A stretch of 64,000 nt of DNA from an uncultured Gammaproteobacteria bacterium (GTDB taxonomy: Bacteria; Patescibacteriota; Microgenomatia; UBA8517). Position numbers and translations under genes: made by a program. How positions within the stretch are numbered: the stretch's first letter is position 1; each line of letters starts with the position of its first letter. This document shows, one piece after another, positions 25,106 through 41,704 of this stretch. The stretch covers positions 8,421 through 72,420 of the forward strand of contig CAYSAY010000004.1 in assembly GCA_964429215.1 (NCBI GenBank). Reading direction: 5' to 3'. A model generated the notes under the pieces. That model saw only the letters and a program-made list of their open reading frames with translations, was not told the DNA's origin and made no database searches.

Positions 25106-27022
25106 CTATTCCTGTGGGATTTGAACTTGAGGATCTATGACTGGCTCTGCAGGTTGTGCTGGTGGGGTAGTTAATTCCTCTGTTGGTGCTGGTAATGTTT
25201 CTTCTTCAGTTGGCTTCTCAACTACTTTCTCATCCATTTTCTCAAGTTCTGACTTTGCAAGTTCGTAATCTTTTGAATCTTTTTCAACCAATTGCAATAC
25301 TAAGGTCATTTGTGCTTTTGCCTTATCTATTTCATTGTTATTTTTATAGGCCATGGCTAAATTATAATGTGAATTAGCAAAATCAGGTTTAGCGAGGACT
25401 GCCAGTTCAAATATCTTAATTGCATCTGAATATTTTTGTTCAGCAAAGTAAATTCCACCTAGTTTTATCCTCAAGATTGGATTAATTGGTTCCAAAAAAA
25501 TTGCTTGACCATAACTTTCGACAGCAAAGGTATTCGCATCTTTTGCGAAAGACGAAATGTTACTGTATATATCGCCAAGAGCCTCCCAGTTTGATGATTT
25601 TCTAGGATTTACTGAAACGCCTGCTTTTCCTTCTCTTATTGCTTGCTGAATAAGTTCTGCAATTGTTCTTTTGTCCTCATCTGTAATATCTGCTTTTTTG
25701 GCTAAATTTGTAGCTATTGCAATGTTTATTTCAGCAGAAGCCTTATGATATCTGTCTATGTAAGGGTTTATGGCGATTGCCTTATTTAAATTGTCATAAG
25801 CCTTCACGCCATCATTTGCAGAAATAGCTTTTAAGGCCACACCGTATATATATTCTGAATAAAATGCCTTGTAGCCAAAAAATATTCCTAATACTATAAA
25901 TGCAATGAGCGGTATAGAAAGTAAAATTATAGGTAACTTTGAAGAAAAACGACCAAAGCTCATATGAGTACTGTTATTTAAGGAGATTAATATAAATATG
26001 ATTGGTAATGTAACAGATGGAATAGGTAAGAGTATTGATATCAGGCTAAGGGCGACCACTCCGTAGTAAACATTATTTTGTTTATTATCTTTACTTAATG
26101 ATTTAACTAATATAATTACAAAGACTACAAGGCCTAGAAGTCCCACTTCAGAAAGAATTGTAAATAAATTATTAGAAGATACAATGAATTTATTGTTCCA
26201 GTTTGGAGTGTTGTTAAATTCAATTGGCCTTAATTTACTAAATCCTTCATTAAAATTTGATGGACCAAAACCAAGTAATGGGCTTTGTTTAATTGTGTCA
26301 ATCGCAATTGACCAACCAGTTTTGATTGATGGTAATTTTAATGACGTTTCTTTGCCCGGAAGAAGTGCAAAAATATTAAATCCAAGTGCTACTAAAATAA
26401 CTAAACTTGAAGCTCCATAAATCGCTTTTTGAGTTAGGTTTGAAACCTTAAGAGTTTTATTTATTGATACTGAAACTATTGTGACAAAAAATACTATAGT
26501 GCTCAGTAAATTGCCGAATATTTGGAAATTTTTTGGGACTACCCCAAAGAATGAAAATAACTGTACCAAAGACGCAGTAATTGCGGACATGATTAAAGTA
26601 TTTTCCACAATGGCTTTATCTTTATTGTCTAGTTGGTTAGTAAAGAAGTAGAGAATTGCCCCAAAAATTACAAATGCAGAAGCTCCGGGTAAAAATAAAG
26701 AATCATATTTATTTGGGGAGATAAAGATACTTGATAATATATAGGCTAGGGTAAATAAAAGTACGTAAAAATCAAGTTTTCCTACCTTAAACTCAAAACC
26801 TCCGTCAGTAAAATACTTAACTATTTTAATTACTGCCATTAAGATAACAGAAACTGATAGTAACAATAATTTTCCTGTTTCAAATGGATTATTAAAGACT
26901 GGTAAGAGGAACAGGGGGAATAAAAATATAGTCCCAAATAACAAATATTTATCAATTAGTTTTAATAATTTAATTAGCTTCATTGTGTGTTTAAGTTTTA
27001 CAAATTTTTTGATTCTTGTCAA
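25106..27022 (-). CDS. large polytopic membrane protein with C-terminal TPR repeats and Pro-rich tail (O-antigen ligase / O-oligosaccharyltransferase-like architecture suspected)
   Basis: About ten or more TM helices and a large loop, followed by TPR-like repeats (AIAINPYIDRYHKASAEINIAIATNLAKK, YNLAMAYKNNNEIDKAKAQ). Confidence 0.45.
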   Translation of the reverse strand: MTRIKKFVKLKHTMKLIKLLKLIDKYLLFGTIFLFPLFLLPVFNNPFETGKLLLLSVSVILMAVIKIVKYFTDGGFEFKVGKLDFYVLLFTLAYILSSIFISPNKYDSLFLPGASAFVIFGAILYFFTNQLDNKDKAIVENTLIMSAITASLVQLFSFFGVVPKNFQIFGNLLSTIVFFVTIVSVSINKTLKVSNLTQKAIYGASSLVILVALGFNIFALLPGKETSLKLPSIKTGWSIAIDTIKQSPLLGFGPSNFNEGFSKLRPIEFNNTPNWNNKFIVSSNNLFTILSEVGLLGLVVFVIILVKSLSKDNKQNNVYYGVVALSLISILLPIPSVTLPIIFILISLNNSTHMSFGRFSSKLPIILLSIPLIAFIVLGIFFGYKAFYSEYIYGVALKAISANDGVKAYDNLNKAIAINPYIDRYHKASAEINIAIATNLAKKADITDEDKRTIAELIQQAIREGKAGVSVNPRKSSNWEALGDIYSNISSFAKDANTFAVESYGQAIFLEPINPILRIKLGGIYFAEQKYSDAIKIFELAVLAKPDFANSHYNLAMAYKNNNEIDKAKAQMTLVLQLVEKDSKDYELAKSELEKMDEKVVEKPTEEETLPAPTEELTTPPAQPAEPVIDPQVQIPQE

Positions 27023-27086: not shown

Positions 27087-30000
27087 CTAATTTAGATCAA
27101 TAATCCACCAGTTAAATTCAACATCGGTATCAATTGCTTCATTAAAACCAATTGTAAATTCGTTTAAATCTTTTGATTTGACATACAAAACTTTATTTTG
27201 GGTTGATGATACTGGCGTTACATATATCAAAGAATTAGTTTTTACTTTATTGTTTATAATTTTTAATTCAGTTGTGTTTGCTGTCAAAATTGCAGTTCCT
27301 GCAATTGAATTCGAATTTATTTGACCTTCAATAATTGTTGCAGATTCTGTTGCAATATCTGTAGTATTACTTCCAATAATTAAATTACCAAGAACCTTCA
27401 GATTGCCGGCAACCTCAAGGTTTCCTGTAAACAATGCGTTTCCGTCTGTGTCAATTTTGATTTTTCCAGCCATAATTTCAATTGGTGCTATTGCCAAAGA
27501 TTGGATGGATAAGGTGCCATCAATTGAGTCAAGCGATTTTGCAGTTAAGTTTTCTGCAACGAATAGGGAAGTGACAGTTGCATTTCCTGTTACAAAAAGA
27601 TTACTTGCGATAACGTCTGATATAGTTGCTGATGATGTTGCAGTATCAGTTGACCAATTAATTGCTTCTGCAAATAATGCTTGGTTGCCTTCAACTTCAG
27701 CCAAAAGTGCTTCAATCTCATCAAGTCTTTCAGACTCTATTTGATTTGCATATAATGTTCCAGAAATTGTTGCATCACCTGCAAATTCTGCATTTCCAGC
27801 TCCATCAATTACTGCAACTTCCTCATTATTATCTCCTTTTATAACAAGTTTTGAAGCAGTTTGGCTGTCATCAGGTTGCAAATCAATTATTAAATCAGTG
27901 TTAGCAATAGGGGAGATGATTTCAGATGTTTTCATACTTTCTATTTTTCGGTCTAATTCTTGAATTGCTCCAGCGAGTACGGCGGTTAATTTGCTGTAAT
28001 CTAGATTTTTATAACCTGCGGTGTCTGTGATGACAAGCTCTGGGAAAATCTGTTCGACATCTTGGGCAAGGAAACCAAGTGAGTTAGCGTCCCCTGTATT
28101 GTATTCGCCGTTCCAGGTGAAGCGAACGGGTTTGAGTTGTTGCACTAGTTCTAGATTGTCGGTAATGGAGGTAATATTTGTTTTTAAACGCGCATCTGAG
28201 AGGGCGGCAGTATTGTCGGTACAGGCCTCGTCGGCATTTAAGTCTAGACAAACATTACCCTTAACATCAAATAACCTGTCGGGAGTGGTGTCGCCTACAC
28301 CGACGTTGCCGGCATTAGGGTTGAGAGCGATATCTCGATAGGCAGTGCCAGGCTTCATTGCCTGAATCCAAGAATAATCCCCATCATGTACTCCAAAGAA
28401 AAGTGACTCGTCAGTGGACGTACCAGTGCCAGTGGTAAGACCCAACATACTAGACCCATTATATACAGAGGATGATCCGGTGATCTGCAATTTTGAACCA
28501 GGAGAAGTAACTCCGATGCCGACGTTGCCCCTCAGGGCTGTGGTCCCAATGCTCGTATTACCTAGTACGACCGTGTTTGTCCCAAGACCGGTGGCGTTGT
28601 AACCAATCACAATTTCGTTGGTATCGCCGTTTGCCAATGCTTTTGTCGAGTTACCAAGATATAGACTTGTATTGCTAGTCTGGTTGGCAGTTGCTCCACC
28701 TGAGATATATCTTCCAGCGTTTACACCGATTGCGTCGTTATAATAGCCAGTAGTGATGTTATAGAGAGCGTTTAGTCCTATAGCAGTGTTTTGATAACCA
28801 GTTGTATTTGATAGAAGAGTATTTATCCCTACTGCGGTGTTGTGCCAGCCAGTATTTACACTCAGAGCGTTTAAGCCTAAAGCAGTTGTACCAGGATCTA
28901 TAATCCCTGCTCTTGTTGTGCCATTGTAGATGACACCACCTGTCGTGTTGACTCTAGGCTCTTTGACACCTAGAGAGGCATCGGCAATATTATCGGTATA
29001 GGTAGTAGTGGTGTTGTCTGCAATAGTGGCTACCAATGCCAAAAGACTATTTAAGCCTCCTGCCGTAGATCGATATATCTTTCTAGATGTGACTGATGTA
29101 TCTGCTGAAACAGGAATAGCTGATAAATTGACCTGCTGATTGACAGGACTGACTACTGATGAGACTATGCCGCTTTCGGTTTCTCCGACAGCTGTGACAA
29201 AGGAGATGCGGTAGTAATAGGCTCCGTTAAGGTTGCCCGCCGTCGCATTGACGGCAACCGTAGGCGCTCCAGGGGCATCGACTTGATCGAAGCGTAGATG
29301 ACCATTTTTGAGATTGAGCTTTTGAGTAGGAGTTGTTGTCCCGATGCCGACGTTGCCAGAGTTGTTTATAGTCATTCTGTAGGATGGGGTAAATGTATTT
29401 CCGATAGCAGTAGTACTGTCAGTATGAAACGATATCGCGCCTCCTGATTGCCAGATGCCTGAGGCACCTCCAGCAGCTCTGAATGTCCACGCATTGGCGT
29501 CGGTAATAGCAGTTCCAGTATATTCAGCTCCTCCGGAAATCAAAGCTTGACCTCCGCCATCTGAAGTGAGATAGAGGCCTTCATTAGTTGTACTTTGTCT
29601 TAAGTTAAACCCAGATTTATTTGCAGCATTTGCTACTGTAACGAGCTGATCTGGAGCTGTTATCCCGATGCCGACGTTGCCAGAGGTAGGGGCCAAAAGT
29701 ATGTTGTTAAAGCCTGTCTGATTACCTTGGATTGATAAAGCACCAGTCGCACTAATTCTAGTAAAATCAAAACCACTTGTATCGCTAGCATTACTAAGTC
29801 TGAGAATGATTGCATCACTAGTAACTTGAGAAACAACGAGTTTACCACCCGGTGCAGTCGTTCCAATACCGACATTGCCAGTGGAATCAATCCTCATCCT
29901 TTCGTTTGTAGCGGAATTTCCTGTGCCAAAACGAATATCACCTGAATATCCAGATGTGCCACTTGTTCCGAACTCTATCCAAGATAAGTTGTTATATCCA

Positions 30001-33000
30001 TTATCTATTGCATACGAACCAGAGGCAATAGAAGAGTTTAATCTAATACCAGTATAACTCCAATCTGCAGAGGCTGAATTTTTCGAAGATGTCATGGTCA
30101 ATCCACGCCAAAGATTACTACCACCCTCTTTGTACTCGAATTTATCTAAGAAGCTATGGCTAGAATAGGTAGTACTGTTTGGTGCAGTAAAACCTTGAAG
30201 ATGGAGATTGGCGGCTGGAGCTGTGACTCCTATTCCAACATAACCTAAATCAGTCCCCGCACCACCTTTGATTGTCATCCTTGTAGCATTAGTATCACCG
30301 GTTGAGACCGTGACATCGTCTGTAGATGTGCCACCAGCCAGTACTAATCCTCCACCAGTTGAGTTAACTGTGTACGAACCAGTTCCTATACTAGTATTTG
30401 TGTAGTTGCCGACCGATACATGTTGCAAGGTAATTCCATCAGTTCTACCTGCGCCAACTAATCTAAAATCATCATCTCCAACCACATCTAATTGATAATT
30501 AGGTAAATTTGTTCCAACGCCAACTCTGCCTGCGTTTGTAATAACAAACTTTGGTGTACCTGAAGCACTGGCTGTAAACAAATCTCCCGCTTTGGTTTGG
30601 TTTACTATTAATGCAGCGTGACCTACATTTCCACCTGCGGGATTTTCTATTACCCAGTTTGTTGCTGTTAAATAATTAGCAAGTGTCGTTGGTGTTGCTG
30701 AAAATGTAATTGTAGATGCCCCCGCTGAATTTGCCAGAATTCCACCATCCATAAAGAGTGTGCCATCAATCTCGAGATCTTGTAATAATAAGTCGTTTGA
30801 TGCACTAATGTTTCCACCATGCGCTGTAGTTGCGATTCCTAACCTTGAATAAGTAGCGGCAGTTGTACCTCCAACTTGAAGAACTCCAGATATAGCTAAA
30901 TCATCACTTATATCAACTTCATCAGTTCCATCAGAAATAGCACCTCCTGAAAATGTTAAATTCCCAGCATTAATAACTGCTGAATTACCTAGATCTATTC
31001 CTGCAGTTGTAAATGTTCCTGAAAGAACTATACCTTTGTTTATAGTTCCTGTTGTATCAGCAATATCTATTCCATTTGTGATATTTCCTACAGTGTTTGA
31101 AATGTGTATTGCGTCCGTTATTCCTGAGTTTCCTGCACTATCAATTAACAATGCATCAGTTACTGCAGTTGTTCCTCCTACTGTTGTATCTAATTGTTGT
31201 AGTTTAAGTAGACTTTCAGTTGCAGTATCAGTAAATAATCCAACCACAGCATTATTAATTACTAAACCATTTTGATTAGTAGCAGATCCACCATTGTTAT
31301 TTATATTAAAAGTAAATGCATCAAGTGCTCCTGTTGGTGTCCATCCAAAGGTTGTTGGATTCACTCCCATTGCTAGAGTTAAAGAGGTGGATGGAGCTGT
31401 TAATTGATCCCATCTTAAAGCAGAGGCTGTAATCCCAACAGTACATGTCAATGTTCCTGTTGCATTAGCCACAGTACAACCAGTACTTCCAGATCCACCA
31501 CCTATTAAAATATCACCAGTTGCAGTTCCATTTAAGTTGAGTGCTCCTGAACCTTTTCCATCGATGGACATTGCGACATTTGTATCGGATCCAAATGCGG
31601 TTTGAGCAACTGTATTACCAGTTGCAGATGGCGTAAAAGTAAATCCGTTAGCTGCTGTTCCCGAAACTCTGGCTAAATTAAATACAGGTATACCTGACTG
31701 GGATGCTGTTAATATATTTTGGTTACCAGTTTCGTTGAAGATGGCAAGAGCTTTACCTGTTGAAATACCGTTGACATGTAGTTTGGATGTCGGACCTGTT
31801 GTCCCAATTCCTACATAACCATTATATTGGATAGTCAATCTTGCATCAGAAACATCTGCGTTTGACGAATCACCAGTACCATCAACAGTAAGGTGAAGAC
31901 TGCCTAGTCCAAAACCAACCGCCGTGTTTTCGAATATAATTCCTGCCTTTGCATAAGAATCTGAGGGTTGGGCCAAAGTTCTAAATCTCATACCTACAGC
32001 AGTTCCTGATCCTCCTGCATTTGCGGGGTTATCAAGTGTTAAGGCGTTGACAAACGCAGTCGTTGCTGGTGTTGAAACATGTAATGGTGATGCAGAGATT
32101 CTACTACCAATACCAACCCTACCAAGTGTTAATTCTGAAACTCCAAGTGTCGATGGGTAGGCTATTGTCCCTGTTGTTCCTGTGTCTAAATATGGTGTTG
32201 CAGTATCTGACCAGTATTGGTCTTGTGCTGCTGTTGATCTTCCATATATTCTATATGCGGTGAAGCCTGTTATGTCTGTCCATGCGACGGAGCAAGATCC
32301 TGTAGATCCAGTTGTAACTGTGCTAGAAGTTTCTGATGAAGCAATTGATTCAAGACCATTTCCGTCTGTGTAACTTACTTTATAATAATATGTACCTGCA
32401 ACAAGTGTTCCTCCTGTATCGGAACATGTAGCTACAACACCTGTAGGGGCTACAAGAGTACGAAGATAAGCACCACCTCCAGTGATTTGTAATGATGAAG
32501 ATGGAGTGGTTGTTCCAATTCCAACATTAGCACCTGAAAAATAAAACGCGTCGCTTGTGTTAAAACCAAATGTTCCTGCATCTGAATCTGTGGCTTCAAA
32601 GTTAAGTGTTGGATTGGCAGATTGATCACCGCCAAATAAAAATGTTCCTAAAGATTCATCAATAGAAAATATGGAGGCGGCAAGTGTTGTGCCACCTATG
32701 GCAAAGTCATTTGTTGTCGTCGTTGGTGATATTACTGCTGATGCAAGTGACCAGATTGAAGATCCTCCACCCGTCGTTATCGCAGCGTCTAAATCATCTA
32801 GAACATCCTGAACAGTAGTTGAAGCACTATTATCAAATTCGTCGAATGCACCGATTAAAGATGCTCCAGATGTGATATTGGTTGACCCAACATCGTTTAA
32901 GCCAATTGCTCCAATCGTTAAATCTGTGCCTGTTGCCAAGGTAAGACCTCCACCTGATGTAAAATCAGTGCCTGCGGCACCAATATTTGTAATAATTGAG

Positions 33001-34820
33001 TTTCCAGCATCTATTCCAGCAGTTGTAAATGTTCCAGAAAGTACAATACCTTTATCAATTGTTCCAGTAGTATCAGCAATATCAATTGCATTTGTAATAT
33101 TTCCTACGGTATTTGAAATATGAATTGCGTCCGTTATTCCAGAATTTCCTGCAGAATCAATTAATAATGCGTCTGTAACAGCAGTTGTACCAGTTCCTGT
33201 AGTGTCTAATTGTTGAAGTTTAAGTAATGATTCAGTAGCAACATCAGTAAATGCTCCTACAACTGCATTATTTATCACAAGTCCATTTTGTGCTGTTGTA
33301 GATCCACCATTATTGTTTACATTCATTGTAAATGCATCTAATGCTCCTGTTGGTGTCCATCCAAAGGTTGTTGGATTCACTCCCATTGCTAGAGTTAAAG
33401 CCCCATCAGGAGCCGTCAAGGCATTCCATTTTGATGTAGTAGCAAAAGTAGAGAAGTCAGTTACACAGTTTGTTTCTCCATCTCCTGTACAGAATTTTCC
33501 AGCTTCTACCGTGTCATCTGTTACTGCATTATTGTAAAGTGAGATTCCTGATGAAACATATAAATCTGCTCCAACTGTGGTAAGTCCTGTTGAATCAACT
33601 GAAAATTTGGAAGTAGGGGAAACACCACTTAAAAAATTAATAAAATTATAACCACTGGCTGCACTTGCAACTGTTCCAGAATAAAGAGAACCAGAAGTTA
33701 TGTTTGCATTAGTTGCATTTACGAATCCATTTGCAGATAGCCCAGGAGCTGCACCTTCAAAAGTTAAATCGAGTGTTCCAACACCATCTGGATTAATTGT
33801 TACCACACCATTACTTGTGTTTGGTGTGCTGATTGTCATTGCTAAGCCTTCAACTGCAAAAGTTCCAGAAGTTGATTGTAATTTTGGAGATGCGTTAGCA
33901 AGAACAAGTGTTCCTGAAGAATTTATGTAAGGTATTGTAGAAGTTCCTGTACCTGCTGGGAAGCCTTGAAGTGTTTCAGAGTTTAAAGCATAGGCAACTG
34001 TAGCAATCTGTATCCTAGGGGTCGCTTCTGCATCAGCCGCAACTGTAACTCCTACCCAGACTGCAGAGTTTTCAGAGAATACTGATGAAGCAATTTCAGC
34101 TCCACAGCTAGAACCTAAAAGAGTTGAAAATATTCCATCTTGATCAGGTGTTATGGAACAAGTTCCAGAGTTCCAAAGAGTAGTTCCACCTGAACTTGCA
34201 TCATATAACCTAAAAACTACGTTTGTGGCAGTTGTAATTGGGTTACCAACATTACTTGTCAGTCTTCCTTGAAAAGATAAAAATCTATTAGGTCTGGTTA
34301 ATGCTGCAGGGAAAGCAAGTGATCTATCAGCTGAATAAAAGACTTGATCATAGAAGGCATAACCAGATACTGAAGTGAATAGGATTAATATAGCTATGTG
34401 AATGTAAGTAGCCAAAGGATATGAGTGATATTTTTTGTACCAGTTTGGTCTTGTAAAGAACACTTTGAACAAAGCATTTTTAATTTTTGGTTTAGTCTCA
34501 AATTTTGCCAAAATTCTATCTTGCCATGACTTAATTATCTTCTTGTAGCTAGAAACGTTTTCAACACCTTCCATAAAGTTGTGTCCCATAAAGCTTGAAT
34601 AGCTACGAAGTGTAGAAAGCCTTCTGTTAAGTGTGGAAAGTGGGGTAGTTAATTTCTCAGTCTCAATATATTCTGTAACTAAGCTTCTGTCGATCTTTCT
34701 ATCCTTTGAAAAGTGTAAGAAATTGACGATATCAGACTTGTAATACTTCAAAGACTTCTGTGAAACACCACGAAGACTTAAATATTTCAAAAACTCTTCA
34801 ATTTTGTTTGTGGCAGTCAT
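27087..34820 (-). CDS. 2577-aa giant protein: N-terminal integrase-type SAM-like domain, one TM helix, huge Thr/Gly/Ala-rich fibre region with GNVGIGTTxPxxKL tail-fibre repeats, Peptidase_S74 intramolecular chaperone domain, ~290-aa C-terminal extension
   Basis: N-terminus IEEFLKYLSLRGVSQKSLKYYKSDIVNFLHFS...LSTLNRRLSTLRSYSSFM resembles the XerD N-terminal SAM-like fold. TM helix is YPLATYIHIAILILFTSVSGYAFY. Chaperone domain is LSDARLKTNITSITDNLELVQQLKPVRFTWNGEYNTGDANSLGFLAQDVEQIFPELVITDTAGYKNLDYSKLTAVLAGAIQELDRKIE. Confidence 0.75.
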   Translation of the reverse strand: MTATNKIEEFLKYLSLRGVSQKSLKYYKSDIVNFLHFSKDRKIDRSLVTEYIETEKLTTPLSTLNRRLSTLRSYSSFMGHNFMEGVENVSSYKKIIKSWQDRILAKFETKPKIKNALFKVFFTRPNWYKKYHSYPLATYIHIAILILFTSVSGYAFYDQVFYSADRSLAFPAALTRPNRFLSFQGRLTSNVGNPITTATNVVFRLYDASSGGTTLWNSGTCSITPDQDGIFSTLLGSSCGAEIASSVFSENSAVWVGVTVAADAEATPRIQIATVAYALNSETLQGFPAGTGTSTIPYINSSGTLVLANASPKLQSTSGTFAVEGLAMTISTPNTSNGVVTINPDGVGTLDLTFEGAAPGLSANGFVNATNANITSGSLYSGTVASAASGYNFINFLSGVSPTSKFSVDSTGLTTVGADLYVSSGISLYNNAVTDDTVEAGKFCTGDGETNCVTDFSTFATTSKWNALTAPDGALTLAMGVNPTTFGWTPTGALDAFTMNVNNNGGSTTAQNGLVINNAVVGAFTDVATESLLKLQQLDTTGTGTTAVTDALLIDSAGNSGITDAIHISNTVGNITNAIDIADTTGTIDKGIVLSGTFTTAGIDAGNSIITNIGAAGTDFTSGGGLTLATGTDLTIGAIGLNDVGSTNITSGASLIGAFDEFDNSASTTVQDVLDDLDAAITTGGGSSIWSLASAVISPTTTTNDFAIGGTTLAASIFSIDESLGTFLFGGDQSANPTLNFEATDSDAGTFGFNTSDAFYFSGANVGIGTTTPSSSLQITGGGAYLRTLVAPTGVVATCSDTGGTLVAGTYYYKVSYTDGNGLESIASSETSSTVTTGSTGSCSVAWTDITGFTAYRIYGRSTAAQDQYWSDTATPYLDTGTTGTIAYPSTLGVSELTLGRVGIGSRISASPLHVSTPATTAFVNALTLDNPANAGGSGTAVGMRFRTLAQPSDSYAKAGIIFENTAVGFGLGSLHLTVDGTGDSSNADVSDARLTIQYNGYVGIGTTGPTSKLHVNGISTGKALAIFNETGNQNILTASQSGIPVFNLARVSGTAANGFTFTPSATGNTVAQTAFGSDTNVAMSIDGKGSGALNLNGTATGDILIGGGSGSTGCTVANATGTLTCTVGITASALRWDQLTAPSTSLTLAMGVNPTTFGWTPTGALDAFTFNINNNGGSATNQNGLVINNAVVGLFTDTATESLLKLQQLDTTVGGTTAVTDALLIDSAGNSGITDAIHISNTVGNITNGIDIADTTGTINKGIVLSGTFTTAGIDLGNSAVINAGNLTFSGGAISDGTDEVDISDDLAISGVLQVGGTTAATYSRLGIATTAHGGNISASNDLLLQDLEIDGTLFMDGGILANSAGASTITFSATPTTLANYLTATNWVIENPAGGNVGHAALIVNQTKAGDLFTASASGTPKFVITNAGRVGVGTNLPNYQLDVVGDDDFRLVGAGRTDGITLQHVSVGNYTNTSIGTGSYTVNSTGGGLVLAGGTSTDDVTVSTGDTNATRMTIKGGAGTDLGYVGIGVTAPAANLHLQGFTAPNSTTYSSHSFLDKFEYKEGGSNLWRGLTMTSSKNSASADWSYTGIRLNSSIASGSYAIDNGYNNLSWIEFGTSGTSGYSGDIRFGTGNSATNERMRIDSTGNVGIGTTAPGGKLVVSQVTSDAIILRLSNASDTSGFDFTRISATGALSIQGNQTGFNNILLAPTSGNVGIGITAPDQLVTVANAANKSGFNLRQSTTNEGLYLTSDGGGQALISGGAEYTGTAITDANAWTFRAAGGASGIWQSGGAISFHTDSTTAIGNTFTPSYRMTINNSGNVGIGTTTPTQKLNLKNGHLRFDQVDAPGAPTVAVNATAGNLNGAYYYRISFVTAVGETESGIVSSVVSPVNQQVNLSAIPVSADTSVTSRKIYRSTAGGLNSLLALVATIADNTTTTYTDNIADASLGVKEPRVNTTGGVIYNGTTRAGIIDPGTTALGLNALSVNTGWHNTAVGINTLLSNTTGYQNTAIGLNALYNITTGYYNDAIGVNAGRYISGGATANQTSNTSLYLGNSTKALANGDTNEIVIGYNATGLGTNTVVLGNTSIGTTALRGNVGIGVTSPGSKLQITGSSSVYNGSSMLGLTTGTGTSTDESLFFGVHDGDYSWIQAMKPGTAYRDIALNPNAGNVGVGDTTPDRLFDVKGNVCLDLNADEACTDNTAALSDARLKTNITSITDNLELVQQLKPVRFTWNGEYNTGDANSLGFLAQDVEQIFPELVITDTAGYKNLDYSKLTAVLAGAIQELDRKIESMKTSEIISPIANTDLIIDLQPDDSQTASKLVIKGDNNEEVAVIDGAGNAEFAGDATISGTLYANQIESERLDEIEALLAEVEGNQALFAEAINWSTDTATSSATISDVIASNLFVTGNATVTSLFVAENLTAKSLDSIDGTLSIQSLAIAPIEIMAGKIKIDTDGNALFTGNLEVAGNLKVLGNLIIGSNTTDIATESATIIEGQINSNSIAGTAILTANTTELKIINNKVKTNSLIYVTPVSSTQNKVLYVKSKDLNEFTIGFNEAIDTDVEFNWWIIDLN
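30930..31420 (-). repeat. internal long direct repeat, copy B, of the giant gene
   Basis: Near-identical DNA to 32940..33430 at a constant 2010-bp offset; encodes RWDQLTAPSTSLTLAMGVNPTTFGWTPTGALDAFTFNINNNGG... Confidence 0.7.
32940..33430 (-). repeat. internal long direct repeat, copy A, of the giant gene
   Basis: e.g. ggtgtccatccaaaggttgttggattcactcccattgctagagttaaag is present in both copies. Confidence 0.7.
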
Positions 34821-35210
34821 TTTCCGCGTTCTTTTCTTTAGCCTCGAATTATATACATTATACCGAGGTATACTAATATTAATATATACATGGGGTATGT
34901 CAACCCCGATTTAATCGGGGTCAAGAGGCTAAATAAATTTATTGTAAATAATTACAAATACATAGTTTCACACAACTTATAACAAAATTACCGCAAGCTA
35001 ATTTATCGACTTAAATATATCAGACAGTACCAAGTACATAGTGCATAGTACAAAGATAATCATCTATAGGTTGTAAATTTACGTGCCTGAGCTCTCAAAA
35101 AATCACAAATGCGGTAATTTGCGGAGAATAAAAATGGCGTTTATTAATTACTTCAAGAGTGCGGAAATCATTTTTTAACTGAAGAATATGAGGAATATAA
35201 TGTAGGTGAT

Positions 35211-35254
35211 ATAAAGGTCAGACCTTTATATAGTGCTTCAGAAGGTCTGACCTT
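35211..35254. promoter_or_regulatory. two related palindromes ATAAAGGTC-A-GACCTTTAT (35211..35229) and AAGGTC-T-GACCTT (35242..35254), upstream of gene 35384
   Basis: Read directly; shared half-site AAGGTC/GACCTT. Confidence 0.4.
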
Positions 35255-35383
35255 TGTAATTAAATTTGAATATAAATTATTAACTATGAGTAATTTTTGA
35301 TTCGTAAGTTAGCAATTAAAAAGTTTCGGTGCCAGGCTTATTTTACTATTGTTTTGTCCCAAATTTATGAGTATATTTAATAC

Positions 35384-35830
35384 ATGGAGCACGAAGAAGT
35401 AAAAAAAGAGAAAAATTACATTTGGCCTGTAGTAATTATACTAATACTACTACTTATCATGGGTCTCGTCATCTATTATCTGAAGTTTGCTGTTTTTTTA
35501 ACTCCTAAGGCAGATACTCCAAATTTAACTAACTCAATTTCGGTAAATAATTCATATATTTTTGCATCGCCCGTACGAGCAAGTGTTGATGGAGATTTAA
35601 TTAGAGTTACAGTATTTTTACTAGATGAAACAGGTTATGGTGTATTTGATAAAGAAGTTAAATTATCTAATAGTAATAGCTCAATTGTGGTTAATAATGT
35701 TCAAAGTTTGACTGACGATACTGGTAAAGCGATTTTTGACATTTCAGGAAAAAGTGCAGGAACGTATTTTCTTGAAGCTACAGTTGAAAATATAACACTT
35801 CCTCAAAGAGTTAAGATGGTTTTTTACTAG
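35384..35830 (+). CDS. membrane-anchored protein with Ig-like extracellular domain
   Basis: N-terminal TM helix, beta-rich C-terminal domain. Confidence 0.4.
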   Translation: MEHEEVKKEKNYIWPVVIILILLLIMGLVIYYLKFAVFLTPKADTPNLTNSISVNNSYIFASPVRASVDGDLIRVTVFLLDETGYGVFDKEVKLSNSNSSIVVNNVQSLTDDTGKAIFDISGKSAGTYFLEATVENITLPQRVKMVFY

Positions 35831-35831
35831 T

Positions 35832-36809
35832 ATGTTTAATTTACTTGCAGAAGTTGATGTCACAGCACAGATCGGTGCTGTAGTAGGGCCTACAGCTACC
35901 CCGACTGGGTCGGGGCAAGCAGCAACTCCGATACCAACATCAATCCCAACATTTAAACCTGTTTTTACACCTATTCCAACATTTACCCCGATTCAATCGG
36001 GGCCAACAATAGTTCCAGAAAAGCAGTTCAGAAAAGGATCATTTGCAATATATGGTTATGGCCCTGTTAATTCTGAAGTTAATTTAAATGGAATTGGGGT
36101 ATCTGCCAAAACAACTAGTGATAGCCAAGGATTTTTTGTGTTTAGCCCAATTTACTCTACATCTGCATTTTATCCTGAGCTTTGTATCCAAGCAGTTGAT
36201 AAGGATAAAAAAACAACTCAGCCTTCTTGCATTCCTGCTTTTCCTGCTACAAATAAACTTCCTTCTGTCGTTGGTCCTGTACTTCTTTCTCCTACCATAT
36301 CGCTTAGCAACAACAAAGTAGTTGTAGGAAGTAGTGCACATGCTTCAGGCATGACAATTCCAAATGCAGAAGTAGATATATATATAGCCAAAAAGGATCA
36401 AAGGCTATCACTTGTCAAGACTGCCAATGCCTATTACATACCAACAATAAAAACAAAGTCAAACGATGAAGGTCAATTTGAAATTAGTTTGCCAACAGGG
36501 GAGATATCAGGGGCAAATTTTCAGGCAGAATATAAAATTTTCGTTTCTAATAAATATGGTGAGGACTTGTCTTCAAAAAGTAACACCTTAAGTTTTGCTG
36601 TTATAACCTCTGCAAAGTCACTACTAGAAAGAATAATAGAATACTTAATAGCAAATAAAATAAGAGTGGTAGTGTTACTTGAGGCAATGGTAGCTATAAT
36701 TCTTGGTTTGATGGCCTTAAAATCAACTACACATCGCCACAAAAAGCATTCTGAAAAGGATTATGACGAAGTTGAATCTCATTTGGAGCAGTTAAAAAAA
36801 TTATCTTGA
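35832..36809 (+). CDS. Pro/Thr-rich surface protein with C-terminal TM anchor and basic tail
   Basis: ATPTGSGQAATPIPTSIPTFKPVFTPIPTFTPIQ low-complexity region; C-terminal RVVVLLEAMVAIILGLMALK then HRHKKH. Confidence 0.4.
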   Translation: MFNLLAEVDVTAQIGAVVGPTATPTGSGQAATPIPTSIPTFKPVFTPIPTFTPIQSGPTIVPEKQFRKGSFAIYGYGPVNSEVNLNGIGVSAKTTSDSQGFFVFSPIYSTSAFYPELCIQAVDKDKKTTQPSCIPAFPATNKLPSVVGPVLLSPTISLSNNKVVVGSSAHASGMTIPNAEVDIYIAKKDQRLSLVKTANAYYIPTIKTKSNDEGQFEISLPTGEISGANFQAEYKIFVSNKYGEDLSSKSNTLSFAVITSAKSLLERIIEYLIANKIRVVVLLEAMVAIILGLMALKSTTHRHKKHSEKDYDEVESHLEQLKKLS

Positions 36810-37177: not shown

Positions 37178-38182
37178 TTACTTAGGTAAATTATCTTTGA
37201 ATTTATTCTTTAGGGCTTCAAGCTCTGAGATTTCTTCTTCAAGTTTTTCTTCAAGTACAACTTGTCTTGCTTTAACCTTTTGTGAGATTAAGAATGCTAC
37301 AAACCCTATGATTAATATTGTAAATATTACAAGTAAGATTACAGTTACAGGAACTATCCAAATAAATCTTGTTTCAGTTAGTGCTTTGCCACTCTCACCA
37401 TAGTTTGCAGTTAATTCAACAGCATATTTACCAAACATCCATTGTTTACCTATTTTTGATTCATAAGCTCTCTTTGCACTAGGGAAAATGTTGTAGTCAT
37501 CAATTGTAACTCTTGAAACTTCTTTACCCATCCAGTCAGTTAGAGTAATTTGACCCTTAGGATTTATGTGGTAACCACCTTGATTTAAGATATCAAAGCT
37601 AACTTTAACTGGTCCGAATTCAAGGAAACTTGGAACTTTAAATTTGTCTATAAATGCGTATTCAACTACTGGTCCATTAACTCTAATGCTCAAAAGTCCA
37701 ACTATTCTAGGTGCTACTGCAGTCTGGCTTCCATCAGCATCTGCTGTCTGTGATAGTTGCCCTGTTTGTTCGAATATAATTGCTACATATTTTCCACCCG
37801 GTTTTGCGTCATTAGGAACTTTAACTTTAAAATTTACCTTTAAAACGTCACCTGATGCAATTGATGCACGGTCATAAGGTAATTCCACCCAATCGTTTGG
37901 TTGGTCTTCAAGTAGGATAGGCGAGCCATCATTTCCTGTAACTATAAAATCAACAGCTTTAATATTTCCTGAAATTGGTGAAATTGATTCGTTAAAAAAC
38001 TTAATCTGTAAATTCTCAGACTTTCCTGGGTCAATAGCTACTGTTTGTCTTGCTGGTGCTACAACTAAAGGAATTCTTGCCTGGGCAAGAGATTCCTTAG
38101 TTAATAATGAAAAGTTAATAGTTAATAATGCAAACACGAAAACTGCAATTGCAATTGTTTTATTGTTTTTTAATTTTTTCAT
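37178..38182 (-). CDS. cell-surface protein: signal peptide, beta-rich ectodomain, C-terminal TM anchor and cytoplasmic coiled coil
   Basis: N-terminal signal, C-terminal WIVPVTVILLVIFTILIIGFVAFLI, then charged coiled coil. Confidence 0.5.
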   Translation of the reverse strand: MKKLKNNKTIAIAVFVFALLTINFSLLTKESLAQARIPLVVAPARQTVAIDPGKSENLQIKFFNESISPISGNIKAVDFIVTGNDGSPILLEDQPNDWVELPYDRASIASGDVLKVNFKVKVPNDAKPGGKYVAIIFEQTGQLSQTADADGSQTAVAPRIVGLLSIRVNGPVVEYAFIDKFKVPSFLEFGPVKVSFDILNQGGYHINPKGQITLTDWMGKEVSRVTIDDYNIFPSAKRAYESKIGKQWMFGKYAVELTANYGESGKALTETRFIWIVPVTVILLVIFTILIIGFVAFLISQKVKARQVVLEEKLEEEISELEALKNKFKDNLPK

Positions 38183-38229
38183 AATTTTTAATTCTTAACT
38201 ATTAATTCTTAATTCTTAATTACCTTCGT

Positions 38230-39723
38230 TTAGAAGGTAGGAACAGCTGTATATTTAACCTTATTAAAGTAAAATCCTGCTGGCTGTGTTGCTGTAATAT
38301 CTATTCTATAACAAACATAGGCACTTGATGAGTCAACTGGTCCTGCATTTGTCATCAAATGTGCGGTTGATGCAGCTCTATCTTCTGATGCCTCTTGGTC
38401 CGCAAATTGCTTAGCATTAAATGTTCCTGCGCTAGTATTGTATTCAAATATGCCATCAGTACCTGTTACGTTTTGCAATGAATATCCAAGTCCTGGGAAT
38501 GATGTAGGGTCTGAACCCCAGTCTCTTAATGTTTGGTGAGTACAGCCAGTTCCGTCACATACAGTGTCTTGAATACAATCTACAGATTCTCCAGCTCCTG
38601 CACCAGTACATGCAACGCCATCTTTACCCATCTGATCGTTTTCTTCTGCGTACACCTTGTATCCTGCTGTTGAATTAGTTGAAACTGTTAGTTGGTGATT
38701 TGTGTTATGAGTTGCCGCTAAATATGTTGATGATAATGTACCCCAGGCAACAGATGTCGCGGTAGTATCAGGTGAACTCGCGGTTCTTGTTATTCCGCAA
38801 TATGAACCAGAATCAGCAGAAATTCCTGCAATTGTAAATGATAATGTTTCATCAACTGTTGCAGAGATCAATACTCCTTCAATAGGGGAAACTACGACAT
38901 CTGATTGGTCAAGTGTATTATCTCCACCATCTCTTGACTTAATATTTATCTGATACGAATCTGCTTGGCCTTGAGTATGGGTTGTAAGCGGTGCAGGATT
39001 AATTAAACCTGGTGCTGAATCAATTGTAATTGTTAGTGTGGTTCCTGCTGCGCAAGTCGTAGTTGCTCTATTGATTTGTAATAAGTGATCAGTTGATGCG
39101 GTTCCTGCAGTTAACGATGCAACTGTCCAGTTAACATCAGTACAACCTGTAATTGTGATATCAGAGGTTGTCATAGGACCAATATCAAATCCGTTTGTAG
39201 CTTTTGTTGCTGCAGTATCTGGAATACCATCGTTTGTTTTTCCAGTTACGTCAACCGCAGGTATTGTAATTAACAAGTCCCCGTTTGCTGGAATTACTGA
39301 AGTTGTTACAAATGAGAGAATTAAACTTCCTGATTGTGTTGCAACTACGTAATCTGTTGCTAATAATGTGGAAGATAGAGCCGTTGACATATTAAAAGTA
39401 TTTGCCCCAATGATGTTTGCGACAGAATAGTTCACGTTTCCGTTACATCCGTTTTCAGTTGCGTTAGGAAAACAAACTGTGTCTTTTGGAAAGAGGTGAT
39501 TGGTATTATTGTCTGCATTTCCTGAAGCATCAGTTGTAACTGTTGAGGAACCAGAAGTTCCTGAAGCTACACCACCTTTATAAGAAAATCTTGCATTTGA
39601 TAAGGTTGCAGAAGCAGAAGTAAAGTTTGCTGAATAAGTTTTTTTGGAAGGTAGTACAAAACGATACACAAGACCACAAAACACTAAAATTAAAGCAAAA
39701 GTAAGTATTTTGTTTTTGGTCAT
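38230..39723 (-). CDS. secreted Thr-rich protein, C-terminal domain paralogous to the 241-aa protein
   Basis: Signal peptide; C-terminus ...KQFADQEASEDRAAS...YRIDITATQPAGFYFNKVKYTAVPTF, compare ...RQFADRSNTES...YKVNIGTGQPSGVYQNVITFIAIPSY. Confidence 0.5.
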   Translation of the reverse strand: MTKNKILTFALILVFCGLVYRFVLPSKKTYSANFTSASATLSNARFSYKGGVASGTSGSSTVTTDASGNADNNTNHLFPKDTVCFPNATENGCNGNVNYSVANIIGANTFNMSTALSSTLLATDYVVATQSGSLILSFVTTSVIPANGDLLITIPAVDVTGKTNDGIPDTAATKATNGFDIGPMTTSDITITGCTDVNWTVASLTAGTASTDHLLQINRATTTCAAGTTLTITIDSAPGLINPAPLTTHTQGQADSYQINIKSRDGGDNTLDQSDVVVSPIEGVLISATVDETLSFTIAGISADSGSYCGITRTASSPDTTATSVAWGTLSSTYLAATHNTNHQLTVSTNSTAGYKVYAEENDQMGKDGVACTGAGAGESVDCIQDTVCDGTGCTHQTLRDWGSDPTSFPGLGYSLQNVTGTDGIFEYNTSAGTFNAKQFADQEASEDRAASTAHLMTNAGPVDSSSAYVCYRIDITATQPAGFYFNKVKYTAVPTF

Positions 39724-40655: not shown

Positions 40656-40656
40656 A

Positions 40657-41382: not shown

Positions 41383-41704
41383 TTTCTAATACCTCAATTT
41401 GGCTTTCCAATACTTTTTCTTCTGTTTTTAGTTCTTTAATTACTTCCTCTGCCTTAACTTTCTTTACCTCTAATAGTCGAATTCGATGAAAAAGAAATGC
41501 TATTAAAGCTAATGAAATTAAAAAATAAACAATAATTAAAAATGAATAGTCAAATACTTCAACCCATGTAATTACAAATATCGTAGTAACAATTACGGTA
41601 GCAAGGTCAATCCACTTTCGAACCTTAATATAAATTTCATTCTTTTTAAATACAAAATGAGCTGAAGTATAAAGAATAATAATAATTGCAAGTATATAGA
41701 GCAT
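41366..41704 (-). CDS. small membrane protein with C-terminal coiled coil
   Basis: Two TM helices, EEVIKELKTEEKVLESQIEVLENEKK. Confidence 0.4.
   Translation of the reverse strand: MLYILAIIIILYTSAHFVFKKNEIYIKVRKWIDLATVIVTTIFVITWVEVFDYSFLIIVYFLISLALIAFLFHRIRLLEVKKVKAEEVIKELKTEEKVLESQIEVLENEKKS

Follow-up and report, generated by a model that had tools for sequence, protein, structure and literature searches.

A gene on the minus strand of the window (the whole 64,000-nucleotide stretch of DNA that we analysed) probably encodes a real and functional giant cell-surface fibre of a Woesebacteria-like CPR bacterium of the Microgenomatia. Judged from its sequence, the product would be a trimeric, membrane-anchored fibre for host adhesion. 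Four parts of the 2577-aa protein are recognisable: a core-binding (CB) domain, a signal-anchor helix, a Thr/Gly/Ala-rich body, and a Peptidase_S74 domain. A sequence-only reading of this DNA had named the same four parts, and HMM searches, a structural model, Foldseek, and hydropathy bore out each call. The gene and the parts of its protein are as follows.

27087..34820, minus strand: giant surface fibre ORF (type II, N-terminal anchor), with an ATG start and 2577 aa plus stop.
34587..34814, minus strand: cytoplasmic CB (SAM-like) domain of the tyrosine-recombinase type, aa 3-78 (Pfam, AlphaFold2, Foldseek).
34419..34535, minus strand: conserved juxtamembrane segment, aa 96-134, including FFTRPNWYKKYH at aa 121-132 (phmmer, jackhmmer, alignment).
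34347..34418, minus strand: single transmembrane signal-anchor helix, aa 135-158 (hydropathy, model, charge).
33381..34295, minus strand: conserved membrane-proximal extracellular domain, aa 176-480, the constant fibre base (family census, phmmer).
28200..33380, minus strand: hypervariable mosaic body, aa 481-2207, rich in Thr/Gly/Ala/Ser (repeats, MAT homology).
27930..28199, minus strand: Peptidase_S74 intramolecular chaperone/auto-processing domain, aa 2208-2297 (Pfam, PHROG, fold).
27090..27923, minus strand: conserved C-terminal module, aa 2300-2577, ending in a beta-sandwich of ~75 aa (IYVTP...FNWWII) (census, model).

The N terminus carries a true CB fold. Pfam Phage_int_SAM_1 (PF02899) matched aa 7-77 with E=6.5e-8 when the whole protein was searched and 1e-9 when only its first 130 aa were (33-39 bits; cut-off, 22.3 bits). 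The NCBIfam XerA, XerD, and XerC models matched the giant fibre only over their first 80-100 positions and scored 19-29 bits versus cut-offs of 220-335. In an AlphaFold2 model of aa 1-175, residues 3-78 form a four-helix bundle with a pLDDT of ~90, and the top ~20 Foldseek matches of this model in the PDB were all tyrosine-recombinase CB domains, with a probability of 1.00 each for archaeal Xer (4a8e), lambda Int (1z19), VchIntIA (2a3v), and XerA (5hxy). The domain shares its four-helix fold and defining motifs with the tyrosine recombinases (XerA 5HXY/4A8E, XerC/XerD, lambda Int 1Z19, and VchIntIA 2A3V). Unlike those enzymes, it is followed by a juxtamembrane segment, a membrane helix, and a giant ectodomain instead of a catalytic domain, and within the family it occurs in tandem (1-2 or more copies) or split over two genes. 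A Pfam search found no PF00589 catalytic domain (R-K-H-R-H/W-Y active site) in the giant fibre, and PF00589 was also absent from all 120 relatives listed. Because this domain is lacking, the protein cannot recombine DNA, and the ORF is neither a recombinase nor a phage gene. The sequence evidence indicates that the CB domain, which is basic (pI 9.65), is an exapted module at the cytoplasmic end of a fibre anchor; "new class of fibre anchor," as the sequence-only reading had put it, is an apt description.

The same N terminus is found on continuous ORFs of 1482-3104 aa in independent genomes of Woesebacteria and Microgenomates, the complete genome CP011214 among them, and it is kept in more than 170 homologues. 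For the CB codons, dN/dS is 0.13-0.17 (where dS was calculable), and across the CB, juxtamembrane, and base regions it is 0.10-0.26. Homologue conservation and the CB dN/dS both support translation of the giant fibre's N terminus, and they contradict the possibility, raised earlier, that the true start codon lies downstream of the membrane helix.

No stretch of the protein other than the helix at aa 135-158 is strongly hydrophobic, and in the AlphaFold2 model a helix spans residues 135-167. The 134 residues ahead of it hold 26 K+R versus 12 D+E (pI 9.96), whereas the ectodomain has a pI of 4.2. Because the helix stands alone, with a basic N-terminal side and an acidic ectodomain, we assign an N-in/C-out topology. 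A cleavable signal peptide is absent, and the CB domain and signal anchor stand in its place. The adjoining juxtamembrane motif was present in 130 of 150 phmmer matches and, by jackhmmer, in 172 of 179 long relatives. In the mechanism that we propose, the basic CB domain would be translated first and stay in the cytoplasm, and the helix would serve as an uncleaved signal anchor, so that the acidic 2400-aa remainder would be exported with its C terminus outermost.

The giant fibre belongs to a large core chromosomal family of Microgenomatia (Woesebacteria, Levybacteria). When the N-terminal 175 aa were used in a word-indexed search for homologues, only two short fragments were recovered, one of them on a frameshift-ridden contig (L001), and an exhaustive representative search was needed to reveal the family. 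That N-terminal stretch alone recovers 235 representatives at E<=1e-3, and the giant fibre has 311 full-length relatives. Among the 179 relatives of at least 1000 aa, the base domain is present in every one, one to two or more CB domains in 174, the C-terminal module in 162, and S74 in 45, which makes S74 an optional module. In these 174, the CB domain lies ahead of the juxtamembrane motif and helix, the domain order of the window's protein. CB copy number ranges from half a domain to two or more; one subfamily is split inside a CB domain, and in one the CB part is a separate small soluble protein with its gene immediately upstream. In the literature on integrase-type and S74 domains in CPR/Patescibacteria, we found no paper describing a fusion of CB domain and fibre. 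The earlier description of the architecture as undescribed thus holds for publications but not for databases, where hundreds of members are already public under automatic names such as "site-specific integrase," "XerD," or "Complement C1q protein."

Outside the membrane, the two ends of the protein are constant, and the middle is not. The base domain (aa 176-480) was matched by phmmer with E values down to 1e-176. The closest relatives are 91-94% identical over the first 420-500 aa, base domain included, and 60-76% identical at the C terminus; over the ~1600-aa middle, no collinear similarity to them was found. The body also holds a recent internal duplication, seen by segment-wise BLAST as aa 446-550 versus 1109-1222 (69% identical) and aa 501-577 versus 1173-1249 (91% identical). 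By eye in the translation, the duplicated stretch extends to ~aa 640 and 1310.

Between aa 900 and 2171, the body carries nine G[NYR]VG[IV]G motifs of the GNVGIGTTxPxxKL type. Residues 1764-1843 and 1418-1545 matched the Bdellovibrio MAT (mosaic adhesive trimer) fibres Bd2133 (8OND; E 6e-11 with a 501-aa query) and 8OJN (E 1e-5), and the alignment passes through the repeat itself (ERMRIDxxGNVGIGTTAPxxKL versus ERMRIDTSGNLGLGTAAPTSALHV). The MAT capping-loop motif has been defined as V-G-G/N-pi-x-x-P-x-x-x-L (PMC10769870), and the giant fibre has both nine copies of such a motif and significant alignments to 8OND and 8OJN. From these alignments, we conclude that the repeats are homologous to the capping-loop repeat of MAT fibres. 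MAT fibres form trimers on the cell surface, in which the N-terminal base is constant, the tips can be swapped, and the ending may or may not be S74; self-cleavage of S74 has been demonstrated for one of them, Bd3182 (PMC10769870).

The likeness to the MAT fibres of Bdellovibrio bacteriovorus (Bd2133 8OND, 8OJN/8ONB/8ONC, and Bd3182; Caulton et al. 2024, PMC10769870) extends beyond the homologous shaft unit. Both are bacterial rather than phage fibres with a constant cell-proximal base and swappable variable parts, both include S74-ending and non-S74 subfamilies, and MAT fibres also serve a bacterium that lives on other bacteria. [quoted passage not shown] Members of this family are also longer, at 1300-6200 aa versus ~1000 aa for MAT fibres, and the family is one gene in a fixed locus adjoining a pilus operon, whereas 21 MAT genes are present in B. 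bacteriovorus. In the proposed mechanism, the constant membrane-proximal domain (aa 176-480) would form the fibre base, and the mosaic Thr/Gly/Ala-rich middle would form a trimeric beta-helical shaft of the MAT type. Trimer-type and lectin modules occur in relatives (C1q names, Gp34_trimer, LamG, and H_lectin), and the S74, C1q, and Gp34_trimer modules of the family lend indirect support to trimeric assembly and surface exposure. The fibre is predicted to act as a host- or substrate-recognition adhesin whose specificity-determining middle is swapped between strains as a cassette. That role leaves a folded domain of DNA-binding type on the cytoplasmic side unexplained.

Near the C terminus, Peptidase_S74 (PF13884) matched aa 2208-2263 (E=1.1e-16; 61 bits versus a 22-bit cut-off). 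The predicted nucleophile, Ser2208, and base, Lys2213, lie within LSDARLK, and an SDxxxK-type motif is present in 45/45 S74 domains of the family. This region has a sequence match to the chaperone of phage S16 gp37 (6f45) and fold matches to the MyRF ICA (7dc3, the best), endoNF (3gw6), and 4uw8; matches to PHROG (long tail fibre) are confined to it. The HMM match, the SDxxxK Ser/Lys dyad, and the fold are thus shared with S74 fibres and spikes of phages (endosialidase K1F 3GW6, T5 pb1 4UW8, and S16 gp37 6F45). Unlike those proteins, the giant fibre is chromosomal, membrane anchored, and cellular, and its S74 domain is internal and optional in the family. S74 is terminal in MATs, whereas here it always starts 377-641 aa from the protein end, not at the C-terminal end itself, and is followed by the conserved module.

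In the giant fibre, ~280-314 aa lie beyond the S74 domain. The sequence-only reading had put this tail at ~290 aa, to be removed if the domain self-cleaves; conservation of the module in 162/179 members, 117 of which have no S74, does not fit a disposable segment. Its last ~75 residues are modelled as a beta-sandwich (pLDDT ~80-89), and the remainder is of low confidence; the monomer AlphaFold model of the C-terminal 388 aa has a mean pLDDT of 52, too poor to classify the module outside S74 and these last residues. We propose that the conserved module and the S74 chaperone would nucleate trimer folding from the C-terminal end and that S74 probably cuts itself at Ser2208, which would shed the last ~370 aa and expose the tip of the shaft. 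Such a cut would discard the most conserved extracellular module, which sits uneasily with the retention of this module in members without S74.

The gene sits in a fixed order of leuS, a Pam-pilus-like operon, a divergent Big_1 gene, the giant gene, and a Wzy_C/TPR gene, syntenic in at least 17 genomes. Its neighbours in the window are as follows.

37178..41382, minus strand: Pam-pilus-like operon, upstream of the giant gene on the same strand (NCBIfam, synteny).
35384..36809, plus strand: divergent conserved gene pair encoding 148-aa and 325-aa proteins (Pfam Big_1, E 4e-9).
34821..35170, minus strand: upstream control region, conserved at the DNA level (alignment of 10 loci, promoter scan).
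25106..27022, minus strand: downstream gene for a polytopic membrane protein with Wzy_C (O-antigen ligase/O-oligosaccharyltransferase type) and TPR (Pfam).

The Pam-like operon encodes a 241-aa PamT-like protein (CPR_pilus_PamT E 1.5e-14, 54 bits versus a curated cut-off of 240), a 497-aa pilin-like protein (Pam_pilin_C E 1.3e-9, also below its curated cut-off), and two paralogous chaperone-like proteins of 311 and 334 aa with C-terminal membrane helices. It lies upstream in the same gene order at all related loci examined. A tail fibre-like protein consistently co-localised with the CPR-specific pam operon has been mentioned in a preprint, in one sentence that does not give its architecture; the word "integrase" is absent from that text (Troman et al. 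2026, 10.64898/2026.03.03.709456). The giant fibre gene shares this genomic context. The divergent pair, which adjoins the giant gene at every locus examined, encodes two proteins: one of 148 aa, with a Big_1 Ig-like domain and a membrane helix at its N terminus, and one of 325 aa, whose membrane helix is at the C terminus. The Wzy_C/TPR gene is directly downstream in L002, L003, L006-L008, L011, and L018-L021; in its product, Wzy_C is matched below the cut-off (E 5.6e-4, 20.2 bits versus 31.7), and TPR_19, TPR_2, TPR_11, and TPR_17 exceed theirs. The 64-bp gap between it and the giant gene holds no terminator-like site. Its product is a candidate partner by which the fibre is probably O-glycosylated, and gene order suggests that the fibre may work alongside the neighbouring Pam pilus. 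The window's two other large ORFs, 2825-5428 and 7449-11927, gave no Pfam or PHROG match.

These data leave little room for a prophage or phage-derived tail fibre gene, or for an accidental fusion with an integrase remnant (an assembly chimera or pseudogene), which we consider extremely improbable: S74 and fibre repeats are classically phage associated and automated annotations name relatives "site-specific integrase" or "XerD," but the locus is fixed between the leuS/pam-like operon and the Wzy_C/TPR gene in many genomes, phage genes do not adjoin it, no relative of the first 480 aa turned up among 50,697 phage records or in IMG/VR, the catalytic integrase domain is absent among the 120 relatives listed, and the ORFs are intact and under purifying selection. 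The earlier suggestion of a domesticated phage fibre thus gives way to the chromosomal Microgenomatia family, and the fusion is not a one-off.

What the CB domain does in the cytoplasm is a separate question. One possible answer, though a doubtful one, is that it is solely a structural or protein-interaction module with no nucleic-acid role: a plug that fixes the type II topology, a docking platform for Sec/SRP or for those Pam components with membrane helices, or an oligomerisation handle. Its plastic copy number, from half a domain to two or more, is consistent with this. In the subfamily split inside the domain, the halves may reassemble as a protein-protein tether, and the strict conservation of the juxtamembrane motif beside the CB domain suggests membrane-proximal assembly. 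However, the DNA-binding features of the CB fold are kept well enough to be detected by the Pfam and NCBIfam Xer models, and its basic surface residues are under purifying selection.

An unlikely alternative is that the fibre is also a membrane-tethered DNA-binding protein, whose CB domains, clustered by trimerisation, would bind DNA and either autoregulate the fibre/pilus locus or tether the chromosome. Its layout would resemble that of ToxR/CadC, which likewise have a cytoplasmic N-terminal domain of DNA-binding type, one helix, and an extracytoplasmic C-terminal part; the resemblance is of layout only, as the fold here is CB, not an OmpR-type winged helix as in ToxR/CadC or Ndt80 as in MYRF. 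Foldseek identifies a true CB fold, and the polar and basic residues K25, Y27, K28, S29, T63, R66, and S69 are invariant and lie mostly in model helices 2 and 4. Helices 2 and 4 are the DNA-contacting helices of CB domains such as those of Cre and lambda Int, which supports DNA binding. In addition, 99% of the family have a basic cytoplasmic part (median pI 9.8), the conserved gene cluster encodes no other domain of DNA-binding type, and the CB part is a separate small soluble protein in one subfamily. On the other hand, CB domains generally have weak affinity for DNA when separated from the catalytic domain, and any signal anchor would be expected to have basic residues on its cytoplasmic side.

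The candidate target would be the conserved TGCGGWAA sites that the gene carries in its promoter and 5' region. The control region holds a -35 element (TTGACA at 34898-34903), TAATAT/TATAAT elements, and four TGCGGWAA-type motifs, at 34821, 34988, 35111, and 35161. Over 14 loci, the upstream spacers (6.3 kb) contain 33 copies of TGCGGWAA, compared with 8 in 246 kb elsewhere, a 160-fold higher density, and the motif positions are conserved at about -8, -150, and -270 to -300 (the last inverted). Both the enrichment and the conserved positions favour DNA binding, and the cluster would allow an autoregulatory role of the CB domain, which is speculative. The motif could, however, belong to any regulator whose gene lies elsewhere, or it could be an element of the promoter or the RBS. 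Subfamilies whose CB domains share only ~33-40% identity all have the same motif, which leaves no signal of covariation. The promoter is flanked by TTAGCCTC and GAGGCTAA. We rejected the reading of TTAGCCTC...GAGGCTAA as an RNA stem because L002, L005, L006, and L010 carry changes that are not compensatory. At L018, the two arms are swapped in order.

In its most specific form, DNA binding would mean that CB domains have been exapted as membrane-tethered DNA binders, three or more per trimeric fibre, acting on candidate TGCGGWAA operators around the promoter and start codon and coupling the state or abundance of the fibre, together with the divergent pair that shares its control region, directly to transcription or to chromosome anchoring. 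We regard this model as rather improbable. Release as in MYRF, with S74-driven trimerisation and self-cleavage freeing a DNA-binding fragment as a transcription factor, has next to no likelihood. Like the giant fibre, MYRF does unite in one polypeptide a domain of DNA-binding type, one membrane helix, and an S74 domain, and 7dc3 is the best S74 fold match. However, MYRF has its S74/ICA between the DNA-binding domain and the helix, whereas the order here is CB (aa 3-78), helix (aa 135-158), ectodomain, and S74 (aa 2208-2297). The S74 domain is extracellular and ~2050 aa past the helix; therefore, cleavage at Ser2208 cannot release the CB domain. Besides, S74 is missing from the majority of the family.

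A large part of bacterial diversity belongs to CPR/Patescibacteria, which seem to live attached to other microbes and whose means of host recognition are, to our knowledge, poorly understood. With its constant ends, cassette-variable middle, homology to Bdellovibrio prey-recognition fibres, and place beside a Pam pilus operon, this fibre family is a concrete candidate for host recognition in CPR bacteria. It also means that a tyrosine recombinase's DNA-binding half can exist with no catalytic half attached, multiplied or even split between two genes, at the cytoplasmic end of a surface structure; neither the recombinase field nor the adhesin field would expect a recombinase part at that end of an adhesin. 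Hundreds of these fibre proteins are labelled "site-specific integrase" or "XerD," which inflates the counts of mobile-element genes in CPR genomes. If coupling of CB domains to operators were true, it would be a new class of one-component link between the inside and outside of the cell, built from a recombinase part in an ultrasmall cell.

The giant gene of the window encodes a MAT/S74-type bacterial fibre (MAT, mosaic adhesive trimer; S74, Peptidase_S74 intramolecular chaperone) whose cytoplasmic anchor module, derived from a recombinase, is unprecedented. The gene is intact:

27087-34820, minus strand: giant gene, ATG start, 2577 aa

The sequence-only reading had described a SAM-like N-terminus, a single transmembrane helix, tail-fibre-type repeats, and an S74 chaperone near the C-terminus, and all four were recovered where it had placed them. 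Pfam Phage_int_SAM_1, a core-binding (CB) domain of tyrosine recombinases, matched aa 7 to 77 above its gathering score (E 6.5e-8 with the whole protein, 1e-9 with the first 130 aa). The NCBIfam XerA, XerD, and XerC models aligned only over model positions 1 to 80-100, with 19 to 29 bits against cut-offs of 220 to 335. An AlphaFold2 model of aa 1 to 175, based on a 14-sequence alignment, contained a four-helix bundle at aa 3 to 78 (pLDDT ~90), and its best PDB matches were all tyrosine recombinase CB domains, each with probability 1.00 (archaeal Xer 4a8e, lambda Int 1z19, integron integrase 2a3v, and XerA 5hxy). We found no second CB-domain ORF within the 64-kb window. The helix, aa 135 to 158, is the only strongly hydrophobic stretch of the protein and is a long helix in the model. 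Because it is single, with a basic N-terminal side (26 K+R and 12 D+E in 134 residues, pI 9.96) and an acidic C-terminal side (2400 residues, pI 4.2), the topology is expected to be N-in/C-out with an uncleaved signal anchor. The repeat motif G[NYR]VG[IV]G occurs nine times within aa 900 to 2171. Peptidase_S74 matched aa 2208 to 2263 (Pfam E 1.1e-16), with a Ser2208/Lys2213 dyad inside LSDARLK; this region matched the phage S16 gp37 chaperone in sequence and the MyRF ICA domain, endosialidase chaperone, and T5 fibre chaperone in fold. The stretch noted after S74 also exists and is about 280 residues long.

A start codon beyond the helix had been named as one observation that would undo the fusion, and it is contradicted by related genomes. 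An exhaustive HMMER search with aa 1 to 175 returned 235 representatives at E<=1e-3, and the thirteen best (E<=1e-30) aligned from residue 1; eleven of these are 1294 to 3089 aa long, and two shorter entries are 366 and 671 aa. When one genome per species was scanned, assemblies of Woesebacteria and Microgenomates, among them the complete genome CP011214, proved to have the same N-terminus at the head of continuous ORFs of 1482 to 3104 aa. Between the window and these loci, dN/dS was 0.13 to 0.17 for the CB codons where dS was unsaturated and 0.10 to 0.26 for the juxtamembrane and base regions. About 50 nt 5' of the ATG there is a promoter-like site (TTGACA, 16-17 nt, TAATAT). The N-terminus is thus translated, and the CB-fibre fusion is genuine. 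A 110-aa "stand-alone" CB protein, P0002, is explained by its source, locus L001 (ERZ1286166 contig_361), a 185-kb contig. This contig carries the same locus with so many frameshifts that leuS and the giant gene appear as many small ORFs, and it is probably an uncorrected long-read assembly. Three further loci (L003, L009, and L016) come from records titled "uncultured Gammaproteobacteria bacterium" and hold a CPR-type giant gene, pam-like genes, or CPR-like leuS, which suggests that the bins are mislabelled or contaminated.

Local profile searches on 245 collected relatives gave a census of 179 proteins of at least 1000 aa. One or more CB domains precede the helix in 174 of the 179 (a single one in 75, two or more in 99), a juxtamembrane motif (consensus ~F-F/Y-x-R-P-x-W-Y-K-x-Y-H) is present in 172, and a membrane-proximal domain (window aa 176-480) is present in all 179. 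The C-terminal module (window aa 2300-2577) occurs in 162 members and S74 in 45. All 45 S74 carriers have the C-terminal module, with S74 starting 377 to 641 aa from the C-terminus, and 117 members without S74 retain it. The closest relatives share 91 to 94% identity with the window protein over the first 420 to 500 aa and 60 to 76% over the last 280 to 480 aa; no collinear similarity to them was found over the ~1600-aa middle. The fibre ends are constant, and the middle behaves as an exchangeable cassette. BLAST also revealed a recent internal duplication (aa 446-550 versus 1109-1222, 69% identity; aa 501-577 versus 1173-1249, 91%). The bodies of relatives hold LamG, H-type lectin, C1q-like, Gp34_trimer, or Hint modules. 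Four relatives (P0186, P0194, P0200, and P0240) carry Hint/intein-type domains (PF07591, PF01079, and PF14890) within the fibre body, which would give this scaffold a second type of self-processing module. That this is not a described architecture holds in that our literature search found no paper on a CB-helix-fibre protein, but GenBank has contained members, under names such as "Complement C1q protein," "site-specific integrase," and "site-specific recombinase XerD," ever since the GW2011 genomes of the 2015 era.

In a search against solved structures with a 501-aa query, shaft aa 1764 to 1843 resembled Bdellovibrio bacteriovorus Bd2133 (8OND; E 6e-11) and aa 1418 to 1545 a B. bacteriovorus "cell wall surface anchor family protein" (8OJN/8ONB/8ONC; E 1e-5). 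Both alignments pass exactly across the repeat motif of the sequence-only reading (ERMRIDSTGNVGIGTTAPGGKL versus ERMRIDTSGNLGLGTAAPTSALHV). These proteins are MAT fibres, predatory-bacterium surface trimers with a conserved cell-proximal N-terminal domain, swappable tips, and a common capping-loop motif, V-G-G/N-pi-x-x-P-x-x-x-L; 13 of 21 MAT genes have an S74 ending and 8 do not, and self-cleavage by S74 was demonstrated experimentally for Bd3182 (Caulton et al. 2024, PMC10769870). That paper makes no mention of CPR bacteria, integrase domains, or transmembrane anchors. The shaft homology therefore makes the body of the window protein a MAT-type bacterial fibre, and the protein would work like one. 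It differs from MAT fibres in that CB domain(s) and a signal anchor take the place of the signal peptide, S74 is internal, and the length is two to six times greater. The earlier suggestion of a domesticated phage fibre was abandoned, the body being no recent capture from a phage: PHROG families matched only the S74 region, and relatives of the N-terminal 480 aa were found neither in 50,697 phage records nor in IMG/VR. G+C within the giant gene is 0.40 to 0.46 against 0.31 to 0.34 in its flanks (window 28001-34000), which fits Thr/Gly/Ala-rich codon content and need not imply foreign origin. Two more large Thr/Gly/Ala-rich ORFs without signal peptides, 2825-5428 (minus strand, 867 aa) and 7449-11927 (minus strand, 1492 aa), sit in raised G+C (0.37 to 0.42 versus ~0.32) on either side of a histidine-kinase and receiver pair; neither had a PHROG match, and the 1492-aa ORF had no Pfam match.

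Locus order was constant in every related genome examined, including Levybacteria, a second subfamily, and a complete Patescibacteria genome: leuS, a small membrane protein, four or five secreted proteins, a divergent Big_1 gene (whose partner in the window is a 325-aa membrane protein), the giant gene, and a Wzy_C/TPR membrane protein. The neighbors in the window are as follows:

25106-27022, minus strand: Wzy_C-like and TPR polytopic membrane protein, directly 3' of the giant gene in most loci
37178-41382 and 41366-41704, minus strand: Pam-pilus-like operon (PamT-like, pilin-like, and two chaperone-like proteins)
40657-41382, minus strand: PamT-like 241-aa protein (NCBIfam CPR_pilus_PamT, full length, E 1.5e-14; Pam_pilin_C, E 1.3e-9; both under curated cut-offs)

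A 497-aa pilin-like protein has a C-terminus paralogous to the 241-aa protein, and the 311- and 334-aa chaperone-like proteins are mutual paralogues, each having a signal peptide and, at the C-terminus, a membrane helix. The pam operon encodes donor-strand-exchange pilins PamA/B/E/T and membrane-anchored chaperones PamC/D, is exclusive to CPR, is most prevalent in Saccharimonadia and Microgenomatia, and has "a tail fibre-like protein" central in its neighborhood network (2026 preprint 10.64898/2026.03.03.709456); the preprint neither describes that protein further nor contains the word integrase. By gene content, the window operon appears to match the pam operon, and the giant gene is very likely the Microgenomatia form of the "tail fibre-like protein." The orthologue of one Pam-like operon protein at locus L020 has a weak WxLIP_PGBD match, a hint that Pam-like loci may be akin to Gram-positive WxL loci. 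The Wzy_C/TPR protein belongs to the O-antigen-ligase/O-oligosaccharyltransferase superfamily by a sub-threshold Pfam match and is a candidate to glycosylate the Thr/Ser-rich fibre as its O-oligosaccharyltransferase. Given this neighbor, the Thr/Ser-rich ectodomain, and no terminator-like site found between the two genes, fibre O-glycosylation is a reasonable expectation.

The window protein lacks the recombinase catalytic domain (PF00589), so its CB domain is unable to recombine DNA; none of the 120 best full-length relatives had that domain either. A split subfamily bears on what it does instead. Three independent genomes encode, directly 5' of the giant gene, a 164- to 172-aa soluble protein with 1.5 CB domains, and the giant gene opens with the remaining half of the second:

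L018, 9493-10011: small CB gene; giant gene at 10001
L020, 2501-2995: small CB gene; giant gene at 3001
L021, 2495-2986: small CB gene; giant gene at 3001

The two genes are separated by 5 to 14 nt or overlap by 11 nt, and the giant gene has its own Shine-Dalgarno sequence, which in L018 is AAGGAG. The split CB may be a naturally divided domain that reassembles, and the arrangement argues that the CB module has to remain with the fibre and is probably in contact with it. A purely structural or docking role for the CB domain is a tentative reading, which we consider rather doubtful. Distinctly less probable is a ToxR-like membrane-tethered autoregulator, in which the CB domain would act on TGCGGWAA sites upstream. 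Consistent with it, the CB signature is kept, with invariant residues (including K25, Y27, K28, S29, D30, T63, R66, and S69) mostly in helices 2 and 4 of the model, which in Cre and lambda Int are the ones inserted into the major groove; a basic cytoplasmic part is shared by 99% of members; and the conserved gene cluster encodes no other DNA-binding-type domain. Furthermore, the 563-bp spacer 5' of the giant gene (34821-35383) is conserved at the DNA level though the proteins are only 40 to 70% identical between genomes. Its layout, TTAGCCTC-TTGACA...TATATTAATATTAGTATA...GTATAAT..TATAAT..GAGGCTAA, recurs upstream of the giant gene at L002-L012 and L018-L021, with TGCGGWAA at conserved positions (~-8, ~-150, and, inverted, ~-270 to -300). 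Across 14 loci, TGCGGWAA occurred 33 times in 6.3 kb of spacer versus 8 times in 246 kb elsewhere (160-fold denser), and four of the six GCGG[TA]AA matches in the window fall inside the spacer. The cluster is a candidate operator set, and a tethered autoregulator would be compatible with these spacer observations. A 21-bp insertion peculiar to the window, TTGACCCCGATTAAATCGGGG, lies at about 34904-34924 between TAGCCTC and the -35 TTGACA; its 17-bp palindrome and flanking duplicated TTGAC make it look like a tiny promoter insertion with a target-site duplication. A tyrosine recombinase identity fails on the absent catalytic domain, and a MYRF-like one on a domain order that prevents CB-domain release.

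From this anatomy and the MAT and S74 literature, we propose how the fibre would assemble. The CB domain would be synthesized first and remain intracellular, while helix aa 135 to 158 would direct the chain to the membrane and anchor it, the rest being exported past the membrane. Three chains would then be registered from the C-terminal end by the C-terminal module and the S74 chaperone and zip up into a beta-helical trimeric shaft atop the constant base domain. S74 probably cuts ahead of Ser2208. The C-terminal module, being kept in S74-less members, is most readily viewed as a folding nucleus or tip of general use. Where S74 is present, module and chaperone would come off together and leave the end of the shaft exposed, as has been proposed for Bd3182; of all the steps, this one is the least secure. 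The adhesin-fibre framework holds whether the CB domain is an autoregulator or a structural or docking module. The Pam-pilus-like operon extends the CPR-specific Pam system to the window's genome. For the fibre, a middle that is hypervariable and studded with lectin modules, together with a relationship to fibres used in prey recognition, points to adhesion to a host or substrate beside the Pam pilus.
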